Shown piece after piece: positions 24,159 through 32,000 of a DNA stretch of 32,000 nt. Each line of letters begins with the position of its first letter. Positions within the stretch are counted from its first letter, which is position 1. The stretch comes from Candidatus Saccharimonadota bacterium. GTDB taxonomy: Bacteria; Patescibacteriota; Saccharimonadia; Saccharimonadales; UBA4665. The notes below the pieces were generated by a model. The model made no database searches. It was given only the letters and a program-made list of their open reading frames with translations, and had not been told where the DNA came from. The position numbers and the translations under genes are program-made. The DNA lies in contig CP064993.1 of assembly GCA_016699955.1 (NCBI GenBank), positions 1,170,001 to 1,202,000 on the forward strand, read 5' to 3'.

Positions 24159-24233
24159 GGCCTCATCTTCTAACGGTTAGGAAATCGGGTTTTCATCCCG
24201 GCAATCGGAGTTCGATTCTCCGTGAGGTCACCA
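24159..24233 (+). tRNA. tRNA-Glu (anticodon UUC), CCA encoded
   Basis: Acceptor GGCCTCA/TGAGGTC (one G:U), short D stem TTC/GAA as usual for tRNA-Glu, anticodon arm TCGGG-TTTTCAT-CCCGG (TTC at 34-36), T arm GGAGT-TCGATTC-TCCGT (first pair G:U), then ACCA. Confidence 0.9.
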
Positions 24234-25911
24234 TAAGAGATTTTTCAAGCGGCGCAAGCCGAAAGACCGAATTCACCCCCGTAAAAAGGGGTGTTTTTGG
24301 TGTTCCATAATCTAAATCATTGTAGGTAGGAAGTTCGTTGAACAATAAGCCAAATAACTTGGCCTTTTTGAGTGGATCCTGCTGCTTTAACAGTAGTGAA
24401 TCGAGGTGTTCCAGAAAATATCGCACTCTCGAGAGTATGCGGTCGATATCGATAGGTTTTTTGTTCTGCATGGCTTGTTTCTCCTTCTCTAACTTTGTTA
24501 TCTTGCTGTGGATGCTTTCGATTTCTTTTTCTATGTAGGCGATAGCGGTTGGATTCGACAGAAGCATGATTTTGCTGATTGCAGCCTCCGCCTCGCCCTG
24601 AAGTGCCGTAATATGGCTTTCTATAGTTGCCTTATCAGCACCAGACAGTGATTGTCTGCGCTCAAACTCGGCACGGACAGTATCGAGTAGCAAGTCTATC
24701 TGGTCTTGGTTAACCTTTATGCGAGCGATAAACTGCGTAATCTTATCGTCCATATCGTCTTTTGGTACTCGGAAATAGTGCCCTCTGTTGCTGCAGTGAT
24801 ACGCCGGGTAGTATTTGCCGGACTTGCCACGGCTAGCGCTGCCGAGGAGCGTATTTTTACATTCGGGGCACAATACCACTTTTTTGTAAGGGAAGTCAGG
24901 GTTATTCATAACTTTATTTACTAAATGTGGCTTCGGAGCTTGTCGGTGGATTTCATACTCACCATCCTTTTCGTTGTAGCCAATATACTTTTTGCTGCGA
25001 TTTGCTCTATTGAACAAGTCGATGGAGATTAAGCCTTCGAAGGCACATTTAACTGGCTGGTAATCAGTCCATTTCTCTACATTAATACCCGCATAAATTG
25101 TGCTTTGCAGCATTTTCTGCATGCTTTTGACGGTGAGTGGGCGACCGCCTTTTTTACAAATGACTTTACTTAAGTCGTCTTTGTTACGGATGTAACTCAC
25201 ACGAGTTTGGTAACCGAGATCGTTAAGCTTGTCGACGATTTCAGTGTCCGTCAGCAGCCCTTCAGCCCGTAATTCAAACATCATGCGTATAAACTGCGCC
25301 TCTTCTTCGCGCGGTCTTAGCACGGTACGCTTTCCTTGATTAGTGTCTACTTTTTCGCTGTAGTATCCAAAAGGCGGTTTGCGCATCCAATACCCGTTCC
25401 TCGTGTAGCGGATCTCTGCGCCAATCATGCGGCTCATAATGTCTCGCAGCTCGTCTCTTGAACGTTCGGCTTCAAGGATCTCCGACTTCTTGCTTGGGCT
25501 ATACACGCTCCATTTATATTCGAACCCAAGGTGGTCGAGCGTATTCACTTGCCGGGAGCTTATAACGCCGTATATATCGACGAGCTGAACTTTGCTCGCT
25601 TCGAGCTGGTTCTTAAGGATATCGTAGCTGAGAGAACCACCACGGGTAAAGCGGTCAATCGATTTGATGACAAATAGGTCTATGGCGTTCTTCGGATCTT
25701 TGCAGTAGTCAACGGCTTCTTGCATGGGCTGCTGTTCTTTACTGGCTGATTCCATGAACACAAAGTACTTTTTGATTGTTATGCCTTTAGTCTCGGCGAA
25801 CCGTTCGATTTGCTCTTTCTGCGCCTCGGGGGAATCGCCATCGGTGCCTTGCTTGGTCGTGGATACTCGTATAGCTGCTACGGCATTTTTGCCAGCTAAT
25901 TCAGAGTGCAT
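24193..25911 (-). CDS. large serine recombinase (integrase type)
   Basis: N-terminal resolvase catalytic domain (AAIRVSTTKQ..., IKSIDRFTRGG), recombinase domain, Zn-ribbon CPECKNTL...YHCSNRGH, long coiled-coil C-terminus. 572 aa. The last 13 codons (MVTSRRIELRLPG) and the TGA stop are encoded antisense to tRNA-Glu. Confidence 0.9.
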   Translation of the reverse strand: MHSELAGKNAVAAIRVSTTKQGTDGDSPEAQKEQIERFAETKGITIKKYFVFMESASKEQQPMQEAVDYCKDPKNAIDLFVIKSIDRFTRGGSLSYDILKNQLEASKVQLVDIYGVISSRQVNTLDHLGFEYKWSVYSPSKKSEILEAERSRDELRDIMSRMIGAEIRYTRNGYWMRKPPFGYYSEKVDTNQGKRTVLRPREEEAQFIRMMFELRAEGLLTDTEIVDKLNDLGYQTRVSYIRNKDDLSKVICKKGGRPLTVKSMQKMLQSTIYAGINVEKWTDYQPVKCAFEGLISIDLFNRANRSKKYIGYNEKDGEYEIHRQAPKPHLVNKVMNNPDFPYKKVVLCPECKNTLLGSASRGKSGKYYPAYHCSNRGHYFRVPKDDMDDKITQFIARIKVNQDQIDLLLDTVRAEFERRQSLSGADKATIESHITALQGEAEAAISKIMLLSNPTAIAYIEKEIESIHSKITKLEKEKQAMQNKKPIDIDRILSRVRYFLEHLDSLLLKQQDPLKKAKLFGLLFNELPTYNDLDYGTPKTPLFTGVNSVFRLAPLEKSLMVTSRRIELRLPG

Positions 25912-26051
25912 AGTGTAGCCTCGCTCTGTGTAAGTTCTTCTTCAGCTATCTCAAGTAGGAGAGTCGCTAAGTACGCAAGCCTATCCGCTTCGTCCGCTTG
26001 GACGATTTCTGGTGGCGTTTCTTTGTTCTTTGAACCTGTAGGCCTGCTCAT
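25896..26051 (-). CDS. small acidic ORF (51 aa) overlapping the recombinase start
   Basis: Hand-found; too short for the ORF track. GAGGG 6 nt upstream of ATG 26051. Sequence MSRPTGSKNKETPPEIVQADEADRLAYLATLLLEIAEEELTQSEATLCTLN. Its last codons overlap the recombinase ATG (25911), so coupled translation is plausible. Function unknown; a recombination directionality or accessory factor is only a guess. Confidence 0.45.
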   Translation of the reverse strand: MSRPTGSKNKETPPEIVQADEADRLAYLATLLLEIAEEELTQSEATLCTLN

Positions 26052-26075
26052 ATCTACCCTCGTTAAGCTTACCTT

Positions 26076-26130
26076 ATAGGGATAATTATACTACACCAAT
26101 AGGGATAACTACAAGCATTTTAGTTATAAT
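26076..26130. promoter_or_regulatory. divergent promoter region with two direct repeats ATAGGGATAA
   Basis: ATAGGGATAA at 26076-85 and 26099-108 (23-bp period), each followed by (ttat)ACTAC. TATAAT on the minus strand at 26085-90 with TTGTAG 18 nt upstream faces the small ORF and recombinase. TATAAT on the plus strand at 26125-30 faces CDS 26211. Confidence 0.5.
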
Positions 26131-26210
26131 TCCGAAATTAGAACTTGTTGCTATTCCGCCCCTGTAAAAGTGCACTTTTGCGTTTCTCTCTTTTATACTA
26201 TGTATACCTT

Positions 26211-26930
26211 ATGGACAGACAACTCAATAACAATCAAATCCAAAATCTCAAAACAGTCCTCAAATTCAGATACGTAACTACCGACAATCTCGCTCACTAT
26301 CAATCAATTACAACTAACTCAGCCTACAGTGCATTAGAAATCCTCAGCAAAGCTGGTTACTTAGAAAAGATATATGAAAAAAGTTACCGACTTTTAAATA
26401 AATCTGCACGGTACTTTTTGACCCAGCAAGCGTTAACGTTCCTGCATAGTCAAGCAGACGTCCAGCTTGATGATGCGATATGGAAAAGCCGTAAGACTGA
26501 TGGCAAGAAAACGCCAGACTTCATCGATCTGCAAGTTGCCCTCCACGCAGCGTACAACGACCTTATGGCCCGATTTGGTAACAAAATAGCCATTGATACG
26601 GCCTTGGAGCTACATGGCACGGAGGGCATTATTAAACCATTGCCGGGATTGCTCGTCAGGCCCCAAACGGGCAAAAACTTTTTCGTAGAAGTTGCCGATG
26701 GCCAGCACCTATTCTTTATTAGGAAGCGCATTAGGAAGTATATCGATAACTACGAATCAAACGAATGGGAGTGGGATACATACCCCGACATCTACTTCAT
26801 GCGCTCTTCGGCGTCGGATCGAACGCGCTTACGTAAGTTCATAAATCAATTGATGGAAGATAGCTACCTCGATGATAGCGACTTCGCGTTTCGTATAGTT
26901 TCTGGAGTGGATCAAATTAAGCTGCAATGA
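26211..26930 (+). CDS. replication-relaxation family-like wHTH protein
   Basis: Track ORF 26145..26930. I prefer Met at 26211 (MDRQLNNNQ). N-terminal winged-helix-like segment (LKFRYVTTDNLAHY...ALEILSKAGYLEK) and a C-terminal ..FFVEVADGQH...IRKRIRKYIDNY pattern recall the Replic_Relax (PF13814) layout. Recognised by eye only. Confidence 0.45.
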   Translation: MDRQLNNNQIQNLKTVLKFRYVTTDNLAHYQSITTNSAYSALEILSKAGYLEKIYEKSYRLLNKSARYFLTQQALTFLHSQADVQLDDAIWKSRKTDGKKTPDFIDLQVALHAAYNDLMARFGNKIAIDTALELHGTEGIIKPLPGLLVRPQTGKNFFVEVADGQHLFFIRKRIRKYIDNYESNEWEWDTYPDIYFMRSSASDRTRLRKFINQLMEDSYLDDSDFAFRIVSGVDQIKLQ

Positions 26931-27181
26931 GTACTGGATACGTTAATTCACGAGCTGGGTGACGATTGCCTGCAAGCATCGCGCGCAGGTAATGGTCGCC
27001 TTGTTTCGACTAAGGGTGCGTTTCATTTGTTAACTAGTGCAACAGACGTGTACATTTTCTGAAAGAATATGTACCGGCTGATGTGCTTGGTGGCAGATAT
27101 TCATTAATTGATTAACCTGTGTTGTTTCGTTAGAAACATCTGAGACATGATTCATTCTTGCACCTGAAGCTTTAGCTGAAG

Positions 27182-27463
27182 GTGGAAGTATGGAGCGTGT
27201 CATTGGTACAATGTAGGCATGAAGTCATTAATCACAAAAGATCAAGATCATGTCGTGAATGTGGATCTTCCAATCTGGTTGATTACAAAGTTTGGTATCA
27301 CCGAGGTGTAGAAAATATAGATGTATATATCACTGAGCCGATAGGAACTAACGATGCGTGTGAAATGGGAGCAGAAGAATCATACAAGTGCGACGATTGC
27401 GGCAGCATTTACCACAAAAAGTATACCAGCCCAGGCTGCATACGTGATTATACATTCGAGTAA
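27182..27463 (+). CDS. small Zn-ribbon-like protein (CxxC...CxxC)
   Basis: Track ORF with CRECGSS and CDDCGS pairs. The start codon is uncertain. Confidence 0.45.
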   Translation: MEVWSVSLVQCRHEVINHKRSRSCRECGSSNLVDYKVWYHRGVENIDVYITEPIGTNDACEMGAEESYKCDDCGSIYHKKYTSPGCIRDYTFE

Positions 27464-27525
27464 AATATACCTAGGTCGACACTATCATCATATAATTGCT
27501 TAGCGTTTCGTAGGAGGCAGTTTAA

Positions 27526-27541
27526 CGTCATGCCCAGGACG
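27526..27541. repeat. hairpin repeat H, copy 1 (CGTC-ATGCCCAG-GACG)
   Basis: Member of a 4-copy family (see findings). Lies 6 nt beyond the stop of CDS 27547..27852(-). Confidence 0.6.
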
Positions 27542-27546
27542 GGTTT

Positions 27547-27852
27547 CTAAAGCCCTGGATAACTCACCGGTCGCCCGATGGTCATCTCGTTATACTCATC
27601 GATATACTCGAGCTCACGCATTTTCTCCGCGTAGTACTCACTTAAGCTTTCGGCTAATCGCACGAGCCTCTCATCCATCTGCCAGTCCTCGACAGTGCAA
27701 CTGTTACCGATACCGCCTCGCATACCGCCACCTAAGTAATTCTGGTAGGCGCTCAGGAACTCATCTTCGTAACCGTAGGCAGATAAATCTAGCTCACAAC
27801 CGCCTCCACGATAGCTAAAGTCTTCTCGTGTGATGTTTTCTGCAATCTTCAT
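27547..27852 (-). CDS. hypothetical acidic protein (101 aa)
   Basis: Track ORF. AGGAG 7 nt upstream of ATG 27852. Confidence 0.65.
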   Translation of the reverse strand: MKIAENITREDFSYRGGGCELDLSAYGYEDEFLSAYQNYLGGGMRGGIGNSCTVEDWQMDERLVRLAESLSEYYAEKMRELEYIDEYNEMTIGRPVSYPGL

Positions 27853-27898
27853 ATCGAATCTCCTAAACTTACGTACTAATAAAAACTGAGCCTTTTTA

Positions 27899-27914
27899 CG
27901 TCATGCTCGGGACG
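27899..27914. repeat. hairpin repeat H, copy 2 (CGTC-ATGCTCGG-GACG), preceded by CCTTTTTA
   Basis: Same family. Lies between the DUF3768 terminator and the start of CDS 27547..27852. Confidence 0.6.
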
Positions 27915-27930
27915 TCATCAACCTATAACG

Positions 27931-27956
27931 AAAACCGAGGAGCTAATACTCCTCGG
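27931..27956 (-). terminator. rho-independent terminator of the DUF3768 gene
   Basis: Minus strand: CCGAGGAG-tattag-CTCCTCGG-TTTT. The hairpin includes the TAG stop (27943-45). Confidence 0.8.
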
Positions 27957-28272
27957 CTAACATGATAGTCAGTACCCGGTGGCAATCCGGACTGAGCGGA
28001 TCACACCAGTATCCGAGACTCTGGTCGTAGTAATCTATTTTCCAAAACAACTTTTACCGGGCTTCAAAACATCCGAAATCATGCTCGCCGTACGGATCGT
28101 TATCTTCAGAGAACTTATCGAAGTCCCTCACTTTCACGAATATCTCATTCATGAACGGTGCCAGTGCCGCTACGCCTCGCGTGACGGTACAACCACTCAT
28201 CCCACGACGGAAGTTGTCGTTTATTGCCGCAATCTTTGCAGACGTTTCATTTAACGCTGTTTCGGTGTCCAT
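27943..28272 (-). pseudogene. DUF3768-family gene interrupted by one in-frame TAA (28054-28056)
   Basis: ATG 28272 with AAGGAGG SD. Sequence MDTETALNETSAKIAAINDNFRRG...DNDPYGEHDFGCFEAR-TAA-KLFWKIDYYDQSLGYWCDPLSPDCHRVLTIMLAEEY-TAG. Both halves carry the family hallmarks (DP.GEHDFG and FWKIDYYD ... VLTIMLAEEY) in one frame of 110 codons. Confidence 0.7.
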
Positions 28273-28324
28273 ATAGACCCTCCTTGTTATTCTTGAGAGG
28301 GCTTTCTGCCTCTCTGTCTGGTGG

Positions 28325-28477
28325 GCACGGGCTGGCATCGGCCAGGGTCAATATGGAGCGCCCCCAGGCGCTTTAGCCCTAGGGACGAACGATGTTGACG
28401 CGGGACGTGCGCCCGTATACTGAGGAAGACAGAGGAAGGAAAAAACCTTTAATAGCTGATATAATTAATTTGAAATG
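28325..28477. promoter_or_regulatory. bidirectional control cassette, copy A (between DUF3768(-) and CDS 28489(+))
   Basis: Ordered conserved blocks shared with copy E: GCACGG, GTCAA(tat), GGAGCGCCCC, GGGACGAACGA, TTGACG (28395-400), 15 nt, TATACT (28416-21), GAGG, AGCTgaTATAATT (28455-67), ATGAA. Inverted repeat GTCAATAT (28347-54) / ATGTTGAC (28392-99). Confidence 0.6.
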
Positions 28478-28488
28478 AAGAAAAATAA

Positions 28489-29001
28489 ATGATTATAAGC
28501 TCATACAAAGTAGTAGAGGTTATAAAAATAAGTCCTAAAACGAGCGACTACTCAATCGACGGTTCGCCAGATATAGTCGTTTACAGCATTAGGTTAGCGT
28601 ACATAGGTGATGATTTATCAGAAACCCCAACTAACATTACGGAAAAATTAACGTGTTTTATAGATTCTAAGGCACCGAAAGTCGGTGACGTCATCTATGG
28701 CAGAAGTAGCTCAACGCTGGAACCGCCTACTGCCAACAAAAAACTTCCTACGGCTACCATAACAGGTGTCGAAATTGCAGCTGACGAAAAACACCCAAAT
28801 CGTATAGAAAAGCTATATTCCGTCAAGACTGATCTTTTAAAAAAATCATTTACTGTTTACGGTGATTCAGAAGGTGCTAATATTCCCTATATAGGCCAAA
28901 AGATAAACCTATGGTTATCTATTTGTGATGATGGTGATGTGGAGGTGTCAGCCGATGAGTTCCCAGAACCATTTGATGAATATACAGAGTTGATTAAATA
29001 A
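28489..29001 (+). CDS. hypothetical protein (170 aa)
   Basis: Track ORF, AT-rich, no SD. Preceded by a 5-codon mini-ORF (ATG 28475, MKKNK) whose TGA overlaps the ATG. Confidence 0.6.
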   Translation: MIISSYKVVEVIKISPKTSDYSIDGSPDIVVYSIRLAYIGDDLSETPTNITEKLTCFIDSKAPKVGDVIYGRSSSTLEPPTANKKLPTATITGVEIAADEKHPNRIEKLYSVKTDLLKKSFTVYGDSEGANIPYIGQKINLWLSICDDGDVEVSADEFPEPFDEYTELIK

Positions 29002-29081
29002 GTTCAGTGCGTACATTGAAAAAACATAGGAATAACCGCAGAATAGGTTAATTATTATTAGAGCTGAAAAATGTTGTTTGA

Positions 29082-29156
29082 ACCTTTTTGCGCCATACTC
29101 AGGGAGTTTGTGCTACTCGAGGTTACTCTCGATAAGCTCGGACCAGCTAATACGTC
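29082..29156. repeat. module X, orphan copy (70/75 identical to 31293..31367); contains hairpin H copy 3 at 29090..29105
   Basis: CCTTTTTGCGCCATACTCAGGGAGTTTGTGCTACTCGAGGTTACTCTCGATAAGCTCGGACCAGCTAATACGTCC. The minus strand encodes ..GRISWSELIESNLE-TAG, the same C-terminus as CDS 31323..31601, but no intact gene is attached. Confidence 0.8.
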
Positions 29157-29167
29157 CCAGTGCACTT

Positions 29168-29212
29168 GCCCTAGGGACGAACGACGTTGACGTGGGTAAT
29201 GAGCTTGTATAC
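29168..29212 (+). promoter_or_regulatory. partial copy of the control cassette (module Y plus -35/-10-like boxes), orphan
   Basis: CCCTAGGGACGAACGACGTTGACGTGGG is 26/28 identical to 28377-28404. TTGACG (29186-91), 15 nt, TATACC (29207-12). It points into the antisense of minus-strand CDSs 29241..29985. Confidence 0.5.
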
Positions 29213-29240
29213 CGACCAACAGGTACCTATCTGTTTCGGA

Positions 29241-29444
29241 TTATTGGTGACGAAGCAGGTAATAACTTGGCTCGGTGAATGGTTTACTGAATAATACTCG
29301 GCGAAGTTCGAGTAAATAGTATCCTATCTTCGGGATTCGTGGAGCTGTATTTTCTTCCGTAGCTAACATCCTCTCGGCTTCTTCGCCCTCGATAAGCTGG
29401 CTATATTGTTTACAATTTTTGACGTTCATCGGATTCTTCTCCAT
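29241..29444 (-). CDS. possible small ORF (67 aa), doubtful
   Basis: Track ORF. Overlaps the 3' end of the upstream CDS by 35 nt, has no SD and no recognisable family. Confidence 0.3.
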   Translation of the reverse strand: MEKNPMNVKNCKQYSQLIEGEEAERMLATEENTAPRIPKIGYYLLELRRVLFSKPFTEPSYYLLRHQ

Positions 29445-29985
29445 TAACCGTATCGAGATATTTTCTAATTATCAGCCCCTGCATCCAATATACATAATAC
29501 GCGAGACTGTTTGTTGAAAATGTATATCTATAATAAAAAAACGAAATATGCATTAATACAACCCCCAAGACATAATATGGAGCTGCTTGTACTGCGAGAA
29601 TCGACGGCACTAACAAAAGTACACTATAACTAATAATGATGAATCTAAGGATATCATGCATTGACTGTGCGAATATACGATTCACATCTACTGTTCCGCC
29701 ATGAATTATTTTATGGAATCGTTTGTAGCCCAGACCTGAAACTACGCCGTGATGGATACTAAAATCTTCCTCAGAATCAAGCATAGTAAATATGGAATCA
29801 AAATATGGATCTTTACCAGAATAACGACGTAAACGAGCATACATAAAAATATTGTCTATGTTTATATATGCCAACCAATAACCTATTGCACAACCAACTA
29901 GTAATGCTAACTGAGAGTCCATTACTAAAATTTTAACATTAACTTCAATAGCATGTATTCTAAGTATTAATAACGTCGAGTTCAC
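29410..29985 (-). CDS. multi-pass membrane protein (191 aa or shorter)
   Basis: Track ORF (GTG start at 29985; alternative Met at 29922, MDSQLALL). Several hydrophobic helices (LALLVGCAIGYWLAYI, FIIISYSVLLLVPSILAV, YYVLGVVLMHISFFYY). Confidence 0.6.
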   Translation of the reverse strand: MNSTLLILRIHAIEVNVKILVMDSQLALLVGCAIGYWLAYINIDNIFMYARLRRYSGKDPYFDSIFTMLDSEEDFSIHHGVVSGLGYKRFHKIIHGGTVDVNRIFAQSMHDILRFIIISYSVLLLVPSILAVQAAPYYVLGVVLMHISFFYYRYTFSTNSLAYYVYWMQGLIIRKYLDTVNGEESDERQKL

Positions 29986-29996
29986 GGTGAAACACT

Positions 29997-30064
29997 TCGA
30001 GTTTATTCTCGTTTAGCTCAAGCGAGCTAATGCGCCCGTATACTGAGGAGACAGAGGAAGGAAA
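29997..30064. repeat. divergent module X fused directly to module Z (-10 box plus leader)
   Basis: TCGAGTTTATTCTCGTTTAGCTCAAGCGAGCTAATGCG aligns with the X core TCGAGGTTACTCTCGATAAGCTCGGACCAGCTAATGCG. GCGCCCGTATACTGAGGAGACAGAGGAAGGAAA (30032-64) matches 28409-28442 with one 1-nt indel. Confidence 0.7.
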
Positions 30065-30193
30065 TACCTCACTAATAAGTGCAACAAATTTGACATAATG
30101 AACCAAAAGGTGCATTGTATACCTAATGATTCTACAAAAAGATTCAGAATCATTATTATAATTATCATCAAGAATCTTCAAGGAGGATAGTCT

Positions 30194-30394
30194 ATGGCTC
30201 AAAAGCCAGAAGATAAGCTATTAAATACAACACAAAATAACGATCTAACATTGACCGGTAAGCCTGTATTGGTTCAAAACCAATTAGGCATTTTCTACGG
30301 CACACTAGAAAAGGCCGACACAAGAACCGGAACTGCTCTTTTAACAAACGGCTTTATGCTATCGCCTGAACGGCACATCACATTTTTTTATTAG
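30194..30394 (+). CDS. hypothetical protein (66 aa)
   Basis: Track ORF. Strong SD AAGGAGGA 6 nt upstream of the ATG. Confidence 0.6.
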   Translation: MAQKPEDKLLNTTQNNDLTLTGKPVLVQNQLGIFYGTLEKADTRTGTALLTNGFMLSPERHITFFY

Positions 30395-30420
30395 CGACTT
30401 GTGCATGGAAGTAGCTACTA

Positions 30421-30927
30421 GTGATTACGGTGATGAAAGCGATGACGGCGCAATTGACCCCTGGGATAAAGCCGAAAAGTTATTTCCAAAATGAAATATC
30501 AATAACAAACGAGGAATACATAGAACACAAAAGAGCTATTTCGATTACAGACTATGCGGCCGAGGGGGTGGCATTAGTGCAATTCAGAACTAGCACCTAT
30601 TGGAATACTGAAGTTTCTCAAGCTACATCGCCATCGATATCTTTAACTGGAATAATGGCTATAGTTGCTATAGACCCAAATACAGAAGTAGTACATAAAG
30701 AATTGTCCATATTGGCTAGCGAGGATATATCTGGCCTTGGAGTTATTGAGTCTGTTCTTGGCTGGGATATTCCAAACTTTGAAGTGAGAAAAACATTCGA
30801 AATATTAACAAAAAGTGTCAGTAACATAGAAGATACCGACTTCCTCAATCTTCCTAAACTGGCTGTAAATACGAGTCAAAGGGTTAGTCTTATTGGACGA
30901 GTAGAATCTGATGACCAAGCTAACTAA
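30421..30927 (+). CDS. hypothetical protein (about 165 aa)
   Basis: Track ORF (GTG 30421; ATG 30433 is an alternative start). No family recognised. Confidence 0.55.
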   Translation: MITVMKAMTAQLTPGIKPKSYFQNEISITNEEYIEHKRAISITDYAAEGVALVQFRTSTYWNTEVSQATSPSISLTGIMAIVAIDPNTEVVHKELSILASEDISGLGVIESVLGWDIPNFEVRKTFEILTKSVSNIEDTDFLNLPKLAVNTSQRVSLIGRVESDDQAN

Positions 30928-31207
30928 ACGAGACTGGGAAAATCGCCAAAAAGTGCGAGAAAACATTAAAGAAAAAATATATAGATCATATAATAGCAGG
31001 AGTATGACTCATTGCTATACGATAAATAGGAATAAGCTTCTTTTTGAAAGTAAAATGAAAGCAGATCTTGCTGTAAAATATAGCAACGGCGAACTCAAGC
31101 GCTCATATGTATGTCGCACTTGTATGGGCTGGCATACAACCAGCAAAACAGAAGAAGAATATAACCAGAAGAGACTAGAATTTTCAAAGGCGCATCGTAA
31201 TATTTAA
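30911..31207 (+). CDS. small basic protein with CxxC..WH motif (98 aa)
   Basis: Track ORF overlapping the previous CDS by 17 nt. Lys/Arg-rich with a YVCRTCMGWHTTS segment. No family assigned. Confidence 0.55.
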   Translation: MTKLTKRDWENRQKVRENIKEKIYRSYNSRSMTHCYTINRNKLLFESKMKADLAVKYSNGELKRSYVCRTCMGWHTTSKTEEEYNQKRLEFSKAHRNI

Positions 31208-31292
31208 CGGAATAATTGAAAAACACGATTAATGCTATCATCTATGGATAAGTGTCTAGCTGATGGCTTCAGCTTATCTTGATTCGAAGTAG

Positions 31293-31367
31293 CCTTTTTG
31301 CGCCATGCTCAGGGCGTTTGAGCTATTCGAGGTTACTCTCGATAAGCTCGGACCAGCTAATGCGTCC
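31293..31367. repeat. module X, gene-attached copy; contains hairpin H copy 4 at 31301..31316 (CGCC-ATGCTCAG-GGCG)
   Basis: Covers the last 14 codons, the stop and 30 nt downstream of CDS 31323..31601. Confidence 0.8.
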
Positions 31368-31601
31368 GAAAGCAGTTTGTAGCAAGTCTTGCCACAGGCA
31401 CGGTACATCTATTTCATCGTCTAGCTGGTACCGTAGCATCATCTCCAGCCAGTCAGCTTGTTCATATGTTCGCCACGCATCTTTGCTCGTAGCTTCTAGC
31501 AGGAGCGCATAGCTTGACTCATCGTTTGTGAGCCAGAGATTTGCGAGCCACGTCTCGTAGTTACTCCACCCATTGTATGTCTGTACCTCTGCTACGTTCA
31601 T
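31323..31601 (-). CDS. small acidic Trp-rich protein (92 aa)
   Basis: Track ORF. AAAGGAG SD. The N-terminal NGWSNYETWLANLWLTNDES motif resembles a motif I associate with phage/plasmid orphan proteins. No name assigned. Confidence 0.7.
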   Translation of the reverse strand: MNVAEVQTYNGWSNYETWLANLWLTNDESSYALLLEATSKDAWRTYEQADWLEMMLRYQLDDEIDVPCLWQDLLQTAFGRISWSELIESNLE

Positions 31602-31637
31602 TGTTATTTCTCCTTTACTTTACGTAACGGAGTTAAA

Positions 31638-31793
31638 GCACGGTGCCGCATGGCAAATCTGTCAAGGTGGAGCGCCCCTTGACGTTTACCAACGGGACGA
31701 ACGACCTTGACGGGTTTGCTCGGTACGTATAATGAGGCAGTACGTGAAGTGACATGATATTAAATAATCATTATCAGCTATAATTTAGGTATG
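31638..31793. promoter_or_regulatory. bidirectional control cassette, copy E (between CDS 31601(-) and the FtsK-like gene(+))
   Basis: Same ordered blocks as copy A: GCACGG (31638-43), GTCAAGG (31661-67), GGAGCGCCCC (31669-78), GGGACGAACGA, TTGACG (31707-12), 15 nt, TATAAT (31728-33), GAGG, AGCTATAATT (31776-85), ATGAA (31791). GTCAAGG pairs with CCTTGAC at 31677-83 and 31705-11. Confidence 0.6.
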
Positions 31794-32000
31794 AACGATG
31801 GTACAACGCTCCAGTTTCTCGTAGGAACTACCGACGACGGCATGGCAGTCTATGGAGACTTCCAGAAAACAGGGCACTTTATATCCTCTGGACATGTTGG
31901 CTCGGGACACGCCAGCTACGACGAAGCAGTGTTTGTCACAAATCTTTTACAGAACTATTCACCTAAAGAATTACAGTTTGTCATGATTGATCCGAAACAA
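31791..32000 (+). CDS. FtsK/SpoIIIE-family DNA translocase-like protein (5' part only)
   Basis: Hand translation: MNDGTTLQFLVGTTDDGMAVYGDFQKTGHFISSGHVGSGHASYDEAVFVTNLLQNYSPKELQFVMIDPKQ. This aligns by eye with the FtsK pattern H(L/F)L(I/V)AGxTGSGKS...L...P.E(V/L)..(L/V)IDPK. The open frame runs to the window end. Confidence 0.6.
   Translation, partial: MNDGTTLQFLVGTTDDGMAVYGDFQKTGHFISSGHVGSGHASYDEAVFVTNLLQNYSPKELQFVMIDPKQ

Follow-up and report, generated by a model that had tools for sequence, protein, structure and literature searches.

In a 32,000-nucleotide stretch of DNA from a Candidatus Saccharimonadota bacterium (GenBank contig CP064993.1, positions 1,170,001 to 1,202,000, the whole of which we refer to as the window), we identified two copies of a control cassette, each of which folds into one long imperfect hairpin with TTGACG in the 3′ arm and a TATA box near the base. 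Based on comparison with homologous copies from related integrative elements, we consider it probable that each cassette holds a promoter that works on single-stranded DNA (ssDNA), in the manner of the Frpo/ssi promoters of plasmids, and without sequence homology to Frpo. Only the strand reading TTGACG..TATAAT, i.e., the template strand of the adjacent gene, is selected to fold. The sequence evidence points to the hairpin with its −35 and −10 boxes serving the leftward (−) gene, and only when the + strand is single-stranded, and to a distal TATAAT serving the rightward gene.

The initial annotation of the window described a cassette of about 150 bp that occurs twice, at 28325-28477 (cassette A) and 31638-31793 (cassette E), and our analysis agrees, with a local alignment score of 45 between the two copies compared to 15.8 ± 2.3 in 1000 dinucleotide shuffles (z 12.7), and to a maximum of 24 in random windows of the same sequence. 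The similarity is centred on GTCAA..TGGAGCGCCCC..GGGACGAACGA..TTGACG. This core of the ordered blocks proposed earlier is common to both copies; the outer GCACGG and GAGG blocks are structural counterparts rather than homologous sequence, and the distal AGCT..TATAAT..ATG block is a separate −10 box located 6-9 nt ahead of the start codon of the rightward gene. Each cassette lies between divergent genes as first described, with DUF3768 (−) and a 170-amino-acid (aa) open reading frame (ORF; +) flanking A, and a 92-aa DUF7249 gene (−) and an FtsK/SpoIIIE-like ORF (+) flanking E. The inverted repeats that had been pointed out, GTCAATAT/ATGTTGAC in A and GTCAAGGT/ACCTTGAC in E, are real, but are merely the top of a hairpin of ~130 nt. 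A third TTGACG copy (29186-29212), which had been counted with the other two, is not an intact cassette: only the right half is present, and it is joined to what is left of a decayed DUF7249 gene, its last 14 codons. The proposal that the cassette is a selected, repeated control element is upheld by the comparative data that follow.

In Saccharibacteria metagenome-assembled genomes (MAGs), ~70 integrative elements contain homologous hairpins, located upstream of a gene for DUF7249, DUF3768, or a small Cys-rich protein, and their orientation relative to the DUF gene is always the same. We collected 104 copies, 90 of them unique; the promoter-spacing and gene counts below use 82 copies, and the set aligned with a covariance model (CM) comprises 74 distinct copies. 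The apex of the hairpin occurs in three forms, i.e., short, GC-rich (the type found in the window), and with a long AT-rich insertion, and the flanks occur in two flavours that depend on which gene comes next. Hairpin E is 97.5% identical over 123 nt to the copies in the related loci L009-L012, where the adjacent proteins are just 60% identical, and hairpin A is 87% identical over 116 nt to the copies located upstream of DUF3768 in these loci.

The consensus structure was derived with RNAalifold from a plain MAFFT alignment of 23 copies, and contains three stems, a lower, a middle, and an upper one, while the −10 box is not paired. In this alignment, 93.8% of the cells are paired, compared to 79.4% in shuffled alignments and 35-44% with slid partners, and compensatory changes are seen in 16 of 33 pairs, with 108 cells changed on both sides, although such cell counts exceed the number of independent events, since the copies are phylogenetically related. 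The covariation score is 0.423, compared to 0.152 for shuffled alignments, and was reached by none of 500 shuffles. Using the covariance model built from this structure (CM R1) to align the 74 distinct copies, we observe 93.9% of cells paired, compensatory changes in 25 of 33 pairs, and a covariation score of 0.447 versus 0.168. An alignment-free test gave a value of 18.0 for the left arm of each copy against its own spacer, and 11.9 against the spacers of other copies. In the window, hairpin E has an RNA fold of −48 kcal/mol (z −4.5), and scores 89-94 bits (E 2e-18) with CM R1 on the + strand and 14.9 bits on the − strand. Hairpin A aligns to the model over its full length, but with 14 bits only, since copies of the other flank flavour were used to build the model.

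Which strand folds can be read from the wobble pairs. The helix contains 98 G.T/T.G cells (18 column pairs) versus 10 A.C/C.A cells (5 column pairs), an excess that is only sensible if one single strand folds. With RNA parameters, the + strand (in the orientation of the window) is the more stable in 78 of 82 copies, and with DNA parameters in 79 of 82; the better folding of this strand in A and E arises because several pairs are G.T wobbles. CM R1 scores 89-139 bits on the hairpin strand versus 15-39 bits on the opposite strand, and finds 75 copies at E < 1e-6, all of them on the strand opposite the DUF gene. Since the folding strand is the template strand of the DUF gene, the structure cannot be a 5′ untranslated region (5′-UTR) fold of the DUF mRNA; we had included a 5′-UTR fold of a − strand mRNA among the candidates, and the wobble pairs, being on the other strand, rule it out.

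The hairpin strand also carries a recognizable promoter. TTGnnn followed by TAnnnT is present in 82 of the 90 unique copies, compared to ~12% expected by chance, and the remaining 8 copies, where no spacing match was found, are search-pattern artefacts. The initial annotation noted that 15 nt separate the −35 and −10 boxes; this is confirmed, and is the rule among the relatives, where the distance is 15 nt in 67 of these 82 copies and 16 nt in the other 15. Of the 74 copies in the CM alignment, 73 have A(−11) and 72 have T(−7), and the pairing partner of T(−12) is A in 58 of them and G in 8. On the non-template side, the unpaired stretch starts at −11 and measures 12-13 nt in 66 of 74 copies; on the template side, it measures 13 nt in 53 of 74. 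The lower stem starts at approximately +2 or +3. The transcription bubble in the open complex of bacterial RNA polymerase extends from −11 to +2, and as a bubble of ~13 x 13 nt from −11 matches this extent, the hairpin resembles an RNA polymerase open complex. Between −35 and −12, the template arm is 4 nt longer than the promoter arm (24 versus 20 nt; columns 42-68 versus 153-174) in 50 of 74 copies, a surplus that the promoter model leaves unexplained.

The optimal spacer of a duplex sigma-70 promoter is 17 ± 1 bp. Neither cassette has the standard duplex spacing, and a consensus scan allowing 16-18 nt reports neither of them, and finds no sigma-70-like duplex promoter on the − strand ahead of either DUF gene in the window. 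We found no terminator-like site on either strand at 28302-28443 or 31618-31749, and no T-run after the hairpin. The earlier suggestion of a non-standard promoter is supported by these data, while the activator dependence proposed with it is not needed to account for the short spacer.

Linkage to a downstream gene is similarly consistent. On the side where the template continues, a Shine-Dalgarno (SD) sequence, an ATG, and an ORF of 55 aa or more occur at a fixed distance in 77 of 82 copies, and the products belong to DUF7249 (49), DUF3768 (22), or a Cys-rich family of 62-65 aa (5). On the other side, a divergent gene is present in 51 of 82 copies, and a gene running in the same direction in 25 of 82 (e.g., L009 5850-5972 and L013 6863-6932). 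Rightward ORFs of at least 60 aa have TAnnnT located 5-9 nt before the ATG at 36 copies, compared to 18% of background ORF starts. At A, the ATG at 28475 is 9 nt after this box and opens a 5-codon mini-ORF (MKKNK) that overlaps the ATG of the 170-aa gene (28489) as ATGA, and this arrangement at 28475-28492 suggests a leaderless start followed by termination-reinitiation. The cassette can accordingly be called bidirectional, as the initial annotation had it, in the sense of two different promoters side by side, and not as one shared operator for both genes.

Table 1. Coordinates of the hairpins, their parts, and neighbouring features in the window (position 1 is the first base of the window).
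Feature	Position	Strand	Remarks
Hairpin A (DUF3768 flavour)	28302..28443	+	from single-strand folds
Hairpin A lower stem	28309-28319 with near 28428-28436		CCTCTCTGTCT pairs with AGACAGAGG
Hairpin A upper stem	28347-28354 with 28392-28399		GTCAATAT pairs with ATGTTGAC
Hairpin A apex			GC-rich, TGGAGCGCCCCC..GGGACGAACGA
Hairpin A −35 box	28395..28400	+	TTGACG, in 3′ arm of upper stem
Hairpin A −10 box	28416..28421	+	TATACT, 15 nt after −35 box, unpaired in internal loop
Hairpin E (DUF7249 flavour)	31618..31749	+	from CM R1 and RNA fold
Hairpin E lower stem	31618-31626 with 31741-31749		CTTTACGTA pairs with TACGTGAAG
Hairpin E upper stem	31661-31668 with 31704-31711		GTCAAGGT pairs with ACCTTGAC
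Hairpin E −35 box	31707..31712	+	TTGACG
Hairpin E −10 box	31728..31733	+	TATAAT, 15 nt after −35 box, in bubble
DUF3768 gene	27943..28272	−	Pfam PF12599, E 1.2e-11; predicted target of hairpin A
DUF7249 gene (92 aa)	31323..31601	−	Pfam PF23907, E 8e-12; predicted target of hairpin E
TATAAT of rightward 170-aa gene	28460..28465	+	separate from hairpin boxes
TATAAT of FtsK/SpoIIIE-like gene	31779..31784	+	6 nt before ATG 31791; leaderless-mRNA geometry
Relic right half	29168..29215	+	3′ side of apex, TTGACG, 15 nt, TATACC; no matching left arm
DUF7249 remnant	29113..29160	−	last 14 codons GRISWSELIESNLE, then stop; 89% identical to 31293-31377
Relic	30031..30064	+	spacer end, −10 box TATACT, right arm of lower stem; identical to 28408-28442
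Small 3′ hairpin	31300..31317	+	GCGCC-ATGCTCAG-GGCGT, just past DUF7249 stop codon
Further copies of small hairpin	27525-27542, 27898-27915, 29090-29107	+	
Chromosome side	1-24158		GC ~49%; tRNA-Ala, tmRNA, housekeeping genes; also encodes a phosphoenolpyruvate synthase
tRNA-Glu	24159-24233	+	left end of integrated element
Large serine recombinase gene	24193-25911	−	3′ end overlaps tRNA-Glu
Replic_Relax-like winged helix-turn-helix (wHTH) gene	26211..26930	+	candidate relaxase or Rep; DUF genes point towards it

Under the ssDNA promoter reading that we favour, ~130 nt of the + strand, once single-stranded, would fold into the imperfect hairpin, with a sigma-70-type −35 box (TTGACG) in the 3′ arm within the conserved upper stem, followed by a 15-16-nt spacer in a stem of freely varying sequence whose opposite arm co-varies with it. 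T(−12) would form the last base pair, A−11 to T−7 and the next 7-8 nt would lie in a bubble of ~13 x 13 nt, and the lower stem of 9-16 bp would substitute for downstream duplex DNA. RNA polymerase holoenzyme would then bind a ready-opened scaffold and initiate ~7 nt past the −10 box, which in hairpin E puts the predicted start at ~31740 on the 3′ arm, opposite the template base ~31627. The polymerase would run off the hairpin via the 5′ arm with the + strand as template; with the 3′ arm as the non-template arm and the exit by the 5′ arm, transcription on the folded + strand would proceed leftwards. The transcript would carry an SD in a leader of ~26-35 nt, and would go on to encode DUF3768 in the case of hairpin A and DUF7249 in that of hairpin E. 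Synthesis of the complementary strand would abolish the hairpin, leaving a duplex promoter that has a poor spacer of 15-16 bp and is directed away from the DUF genes, and expression would therefore be transient, as it is for Frpo/ssi of F and ColIb-P9. Within this reading, the sequence comparison shows the fold with its covariation and strand specificity, the conserved boxes with their geometry, and the link to the downstream gene, while use of the hairpin by RNA polymerase, the start position, and the origin of the single strand are inferred. Conjugative transfer, rolling-circle replication of the excised element, and DNA uptake are all possible sources of the single strand. If the nick were located beside the Replic_Relax-like gene, and the hairpin strand were transferred or displaced, the DUF genes would be the first to become single-stranded, and would be transcribed back towards the nick.

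The same folded strand could be an RNA. A + strand cis-antisense RNA, of the kind represented by CopA/RNAI or by type I antitoxins, would cover the SD of the DUF mRNA and control its translation; the covariation and the G.U excess on the + strand suit RNA as well as ssDNA, the conserved left flank includes the SD complement CTCCTTT, and a long bulged hairpin with a conserved apical loop is what is seen in known antisense RNAs. We nevertheless judge this unlikely, as the region to the left of the hairpin is where three unrelated coding sequences start, and our alignment search, which weak or −10-only promoters could escape, revealed no promoter common to both flank flavours. In addition, no T-run or terminator follows the hairpin, no Rfam family matches it, and an antisense RNA leaves the conserved TTGnnn, 15-16 nt, TAnnnT arrangement, with −12 paired and −11 unpaired, without explanation.

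All of the structural and strand evidence would apply equally if the folded + strand were a single-strand origin or another ssDNA signal, i.e., one that primes the complementary strand or serves as a recombination or nicking site, and does not make mRNA. A protein could recognize the conserved apical loop, and Frpo itself is described, in the title of Masai and Arai 1997 as cited in PMC11541004, as serving both transcription and primer synthesis. The SD, ATG, and gene at a fixed distance in 77 of 82 copies are, however, not required for priming alone, and each small element contains two or three copies, each tied to a gene. We therefore regard a signal without transcription as improbable, but a priming role overlaps with an ssDNA promoter and does not exclude it.

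Least probable, and in our view very doubtful, is the reading in which TTGACG, 15 nt, and TATAAT make up a conventional duplex promoter that drives the rightward gene, with the inverted repeat acting as a dimeric-regulator operator or a cruciform: the boxes in the window do read towards the 170-aa and FtsK-like genes, a divergent gene is present on that side in 51 of 82 copies, and lone right halves are located beside genes in L009 and L010, but the arms covary rather than keep a binding sequence, one arm has 4 extra nt, 25 of 82 copies have a same-direction gene in place of a divergent one, a rightward gene usually has a −10 box of its own, 5-9 nt ahead of the ATG, and the 15-16-bp spacer is below the 17 ± 1 bp optimum. 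Of the two explanations that the initial annotation offered for the covarying repeat, the selected hairpin is thus retained, and the dimeric-protein operator on duplex DNA is set aside, given the covarying arms, the bulges, and the 98:10 excess of G.T over A.C.

Several points weigh against the ssDNA promoter reading. The relatedness of the copies reduces what the covariation counts can carry, although the slid-partner control keeps this relatedness, and yet pairing still collapses. The apical loop, TGGAGAC..GTACTA, is almost invariant, and the promoter model does not account for it. Right halves without a left arm persist (29168-29215 and 30031-30064 in the window, and in L009 and L010), and could mean that the boxes also act as an ordinary duplex promoter. 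Sequence similarity to Frpo/ssi was not detected, with CM R1 finding nothing at E < 1 in the leading region of F, and with no plasmid match by megablast. The −10 box of the saccharibacterial hairpin lies in a preformed bubble of ~13 nt, whereas Frpo has been published as reconstituted paired boxes; the Frpo2 region of F upstream of ssb folds strongly (z −7.1), but its boxes could not be placed by eye, and we therefore make no claim on the pairing of the −10 box in Frpo. The DUF genes are assigned to a putative leading region by synteny alone, and the sole transfer-type gene seen so far in these elements encodes an FtsK/TraG-like ATPase. An FtsK-type (TraB-like) system moves double-stranded DNA. 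Finally, a survey of Patescibacteria found type IV secretion systems while relaxases were few, and did not decide whether very different relaxases are present (bioRxiv 10.1101/2025.01.22.634366).

The predicted target genes themselves offer few clues. The DUF7249 gene in the window has the SD AAGGAG in a leader of ~26 nt, and DUF7249 has a sole match to phrog_871, of unknown function; nearly all of the 56 homologues we found are from Saccharibacteria MAGs. The DUF3768 gene in the window contains an in-frame TAA at 28054-28056, and as tblastn alignment to homologues (69% and 60% identity) runs through this codon to a normal C-terminus, the TAA reflects recent pseudogene formation, a truncated form of the gene, or a sequencing error. 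DUF3768 is present on 451 PLSDB plasmids, 314 of which are conjugative or mobilizable, and the two contexts inspected were uninformative. No sequence relative of either protein is in the PDB, our literature search found no paper naming either family, and both are absent from the leading-region family tables of Samuel et al.

The window also contains decayed units, at 29083-29215 and 29996-30064, in which a 3′ remnant of DUF7249 is joined straight to the right part of a hairpin; in the second of these, the relic at 30031..30064 is fused to a diverged DUF7249 C-terminal remnant, GRISSLELNENKLE. This arrangement suggests deletions by recombination within or beside hairpins. The relics are decayed units, and provide no argument for a role that is independent of the gene.

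A second, smaller hairpin is found beyond the ends of the leftward genes, with the motif GAGC(A/C)(G/T)TTTA, a covarying stem of 4-5 bp (variants CGTC/GACG, CGCC/GGCG, AGCC/GGCT, and AGTC/GACT), and the conserved 8-nt loop ATGCTCAG. The four copies in the window are located from a few nt to ~28 nt after the stop codons of the leftward 101-aa gene, the DUF3768 gene, the DUF7249 remnant, and the DUF7249 gene. In related loci, 66 copies are on the hairpin strand and 1 is on the other strand. This small hairpin is not a canonical terminator. The "X module" was considered as a structured element and rejected, being mostly the coding 3′ end of DUF7249, with just the first 18-28 nt forming a real conserved hairpin.

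Cassettes A and E are both inside an integrated element. The overlap of the serine recombinase gene with tRNA-Glu, together with a fall in GC content from ~49% to ~40-44% at 24159, shows that the element starts at this position, and it extends past the end of the window. Since the recombinase ORF ends within tRNA-Glu, the attachment site is probably in the tRNA, and the element probably restores the 3′ part of this gene. Related loci share a common gene set of DUF3768, DUF7249, Replic_Relax (PF13814), a large serine recombinase, and an FtsK/TraG-like ATPase. The wHTH protein encoded in the window has only a weak TrmB match in Pfam, but a phmmer search with this protein and the PF13814 proteins of L003 and L013 showed that homologues adjoin DUF genes in ~58 loci. 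In these loci, the DUF genes neighbour the Replic_Relax gene and are oriented towards it, with the integrase beyond, and in the window this gene order is seen in mirror image. Direct repeats, ATAGGGATAATTAT and ATAGGGATAACTAC, are present at 26076-26112, in the intergenic region between a 51-aa ORF and the Replic_Relax-like gene, and are candidate iterons or a candidate oriT/regulatory site.

Two further observations were made among the relatives. A copy upstream of DUF7249 in L091 (3769-3924, −) is a chimera, with a left arm and flank of the A (DUF3768) type and a right arm of the E type, so that the two sides of the middle stem and of the lower stem are no longer complementary; it resembles the product of natural recombination across the conserved apex. 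In Gemmataceae/Fimbriiglobus MAGs (L081, L082, L086, L087, L089, and L090), GC-rich repeats occur ~230 nt upstream of DUF7249 homologues (e.g., L082 3760-3805), with the core GGTCAAGGTGGAG..ACCTTGA and without TAnnnT at the promoter position, and it is unclear if these are distant relatives of the hairpin apex or the product of chance. A megablast search with 26000-32000 found no match among 72,556 plasmids, nor in a phage collection. An exact-pattern scan with GGGACGAACGANNTTGACG returned two viral-contig matches, both inside coding sequence, and both rejected as chance. Rfam 15 gave no matches in 26000-32000 at the gathering score, and none that were relevant at E up to 5.

It is tempting to go one step further and to regard these loci as self-contained ssDNA units, each comprising a hairpin that mimics the open complex and so has no melting step, a small gene (DUF7249, DUF3768, or Cys-rich), and a hairpin with the ATGCTCAG loop, invented independently outside the Proteobacteria and implying a functional single-stranded stage; we put this forward tentatively, as slightly short of an even prospect. 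If true, the single-stranded stage of these elements from the candidate phyla radiation (CPR) would be evidence for conjugation or rolling-circle transfer via an unrecognized relaxase, i.e., Replic_Relax. To our knowledge, ssDNA promoters have been experimentally shown only for a few enterobacterial plasmids, and we are aware of searches elsewhere only by similarity to Frpo or with candidates chosen by eye. The lack of similarity to Frpo, combined with unusually clear comparative support, suggests that this strategy is older, or has been reinvented more often, than assumed. A promoter active only on ssDNA beside a Replic_Relax gene in tRNA-integrated elements would also make the question of CPR relaxases directly testable. 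Our literature search found no paper linking Saccharibacteria with ssDNA promoters. Saccharibacteria are naturally transformable (PMC10633639), and the hairpin could supply a part for transient expression from incoming ssDNA in these organisms.

The hairpin behaves like Frpo on every feature that could be tested here, and is not a homologue of it. The Frpo/ssi promoters are reportedly also the subject of Masai and Arai 1997 and of Nasim et al. 2004. They are hairpins of the transferred strand that restore −35 and −10 boxes, and give early, transient expression that is switched off after synthesis of the complementary strand (PMC9849209, PMC11541004, PMC6294495, PMC8708921). In both cases one strand forms an imperfect hairpin bearing −35 and −10 boxes (Couturier et al. 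2023, PMC9849209; Samuel et al. 2024, PMC11541004), and the strand that folds serves as template for the genes that come right after the hairpin and start with an SD; published Frpo sequences also begin at the complement of an SD and start codon. Several copies are present per element in both, with two in F and three in ColIb-P9 (PMC9849209, PMC6294495), and both precede small genes of unknown or establishment-type function that point to the relaxase/oriT side, the leading-region genes of F pointing towards oriT as the DUF genes do towards the Replic_Relax gene. The saccharibacterial hairpin differs in its length (130-185 nt versus ~330 nt for Frpo), in its spacer of 15-16 nt, and in its context, i.e., a CPR host and a tRNA-integrated serine-recombinase element versus a proteobacterial plasmid.

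Two other systems provide useful comparisons. The single-strand origins of rolling-circle plasmids (ssoA/ssoU type) are also strand-specific, imperfect ssDNA hairpins that are recognized by host RNA polymerase. An intermediate of this kind could also arise from an excised element that encodes a Rep/relaxase-like protein. These origins make a short primer, however, and are not tied to an SD or a gene, whereas here 2-3 copies are present per element, each before a gene. The CS-6 motif of ssoA is TAGCGT, and was not seen on reading the two hairpins in the window. Similar in geometry are the bubble and fork-junction promoter templates with which open complexes of RNA polymerase are studied in vitro, and which contain a duplex −35 region and spacer, a −10 region with a single-stranded non-template strand from −11, and a downstream duplex. 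Those templates are laboratory constructs, whereas the saccharibacterial hairpin would be a natural scaffold formed by intramolecular folding of one strand, and its bubble geometry lends itself to a simple biochemical test with synthetic oligonucleotides.

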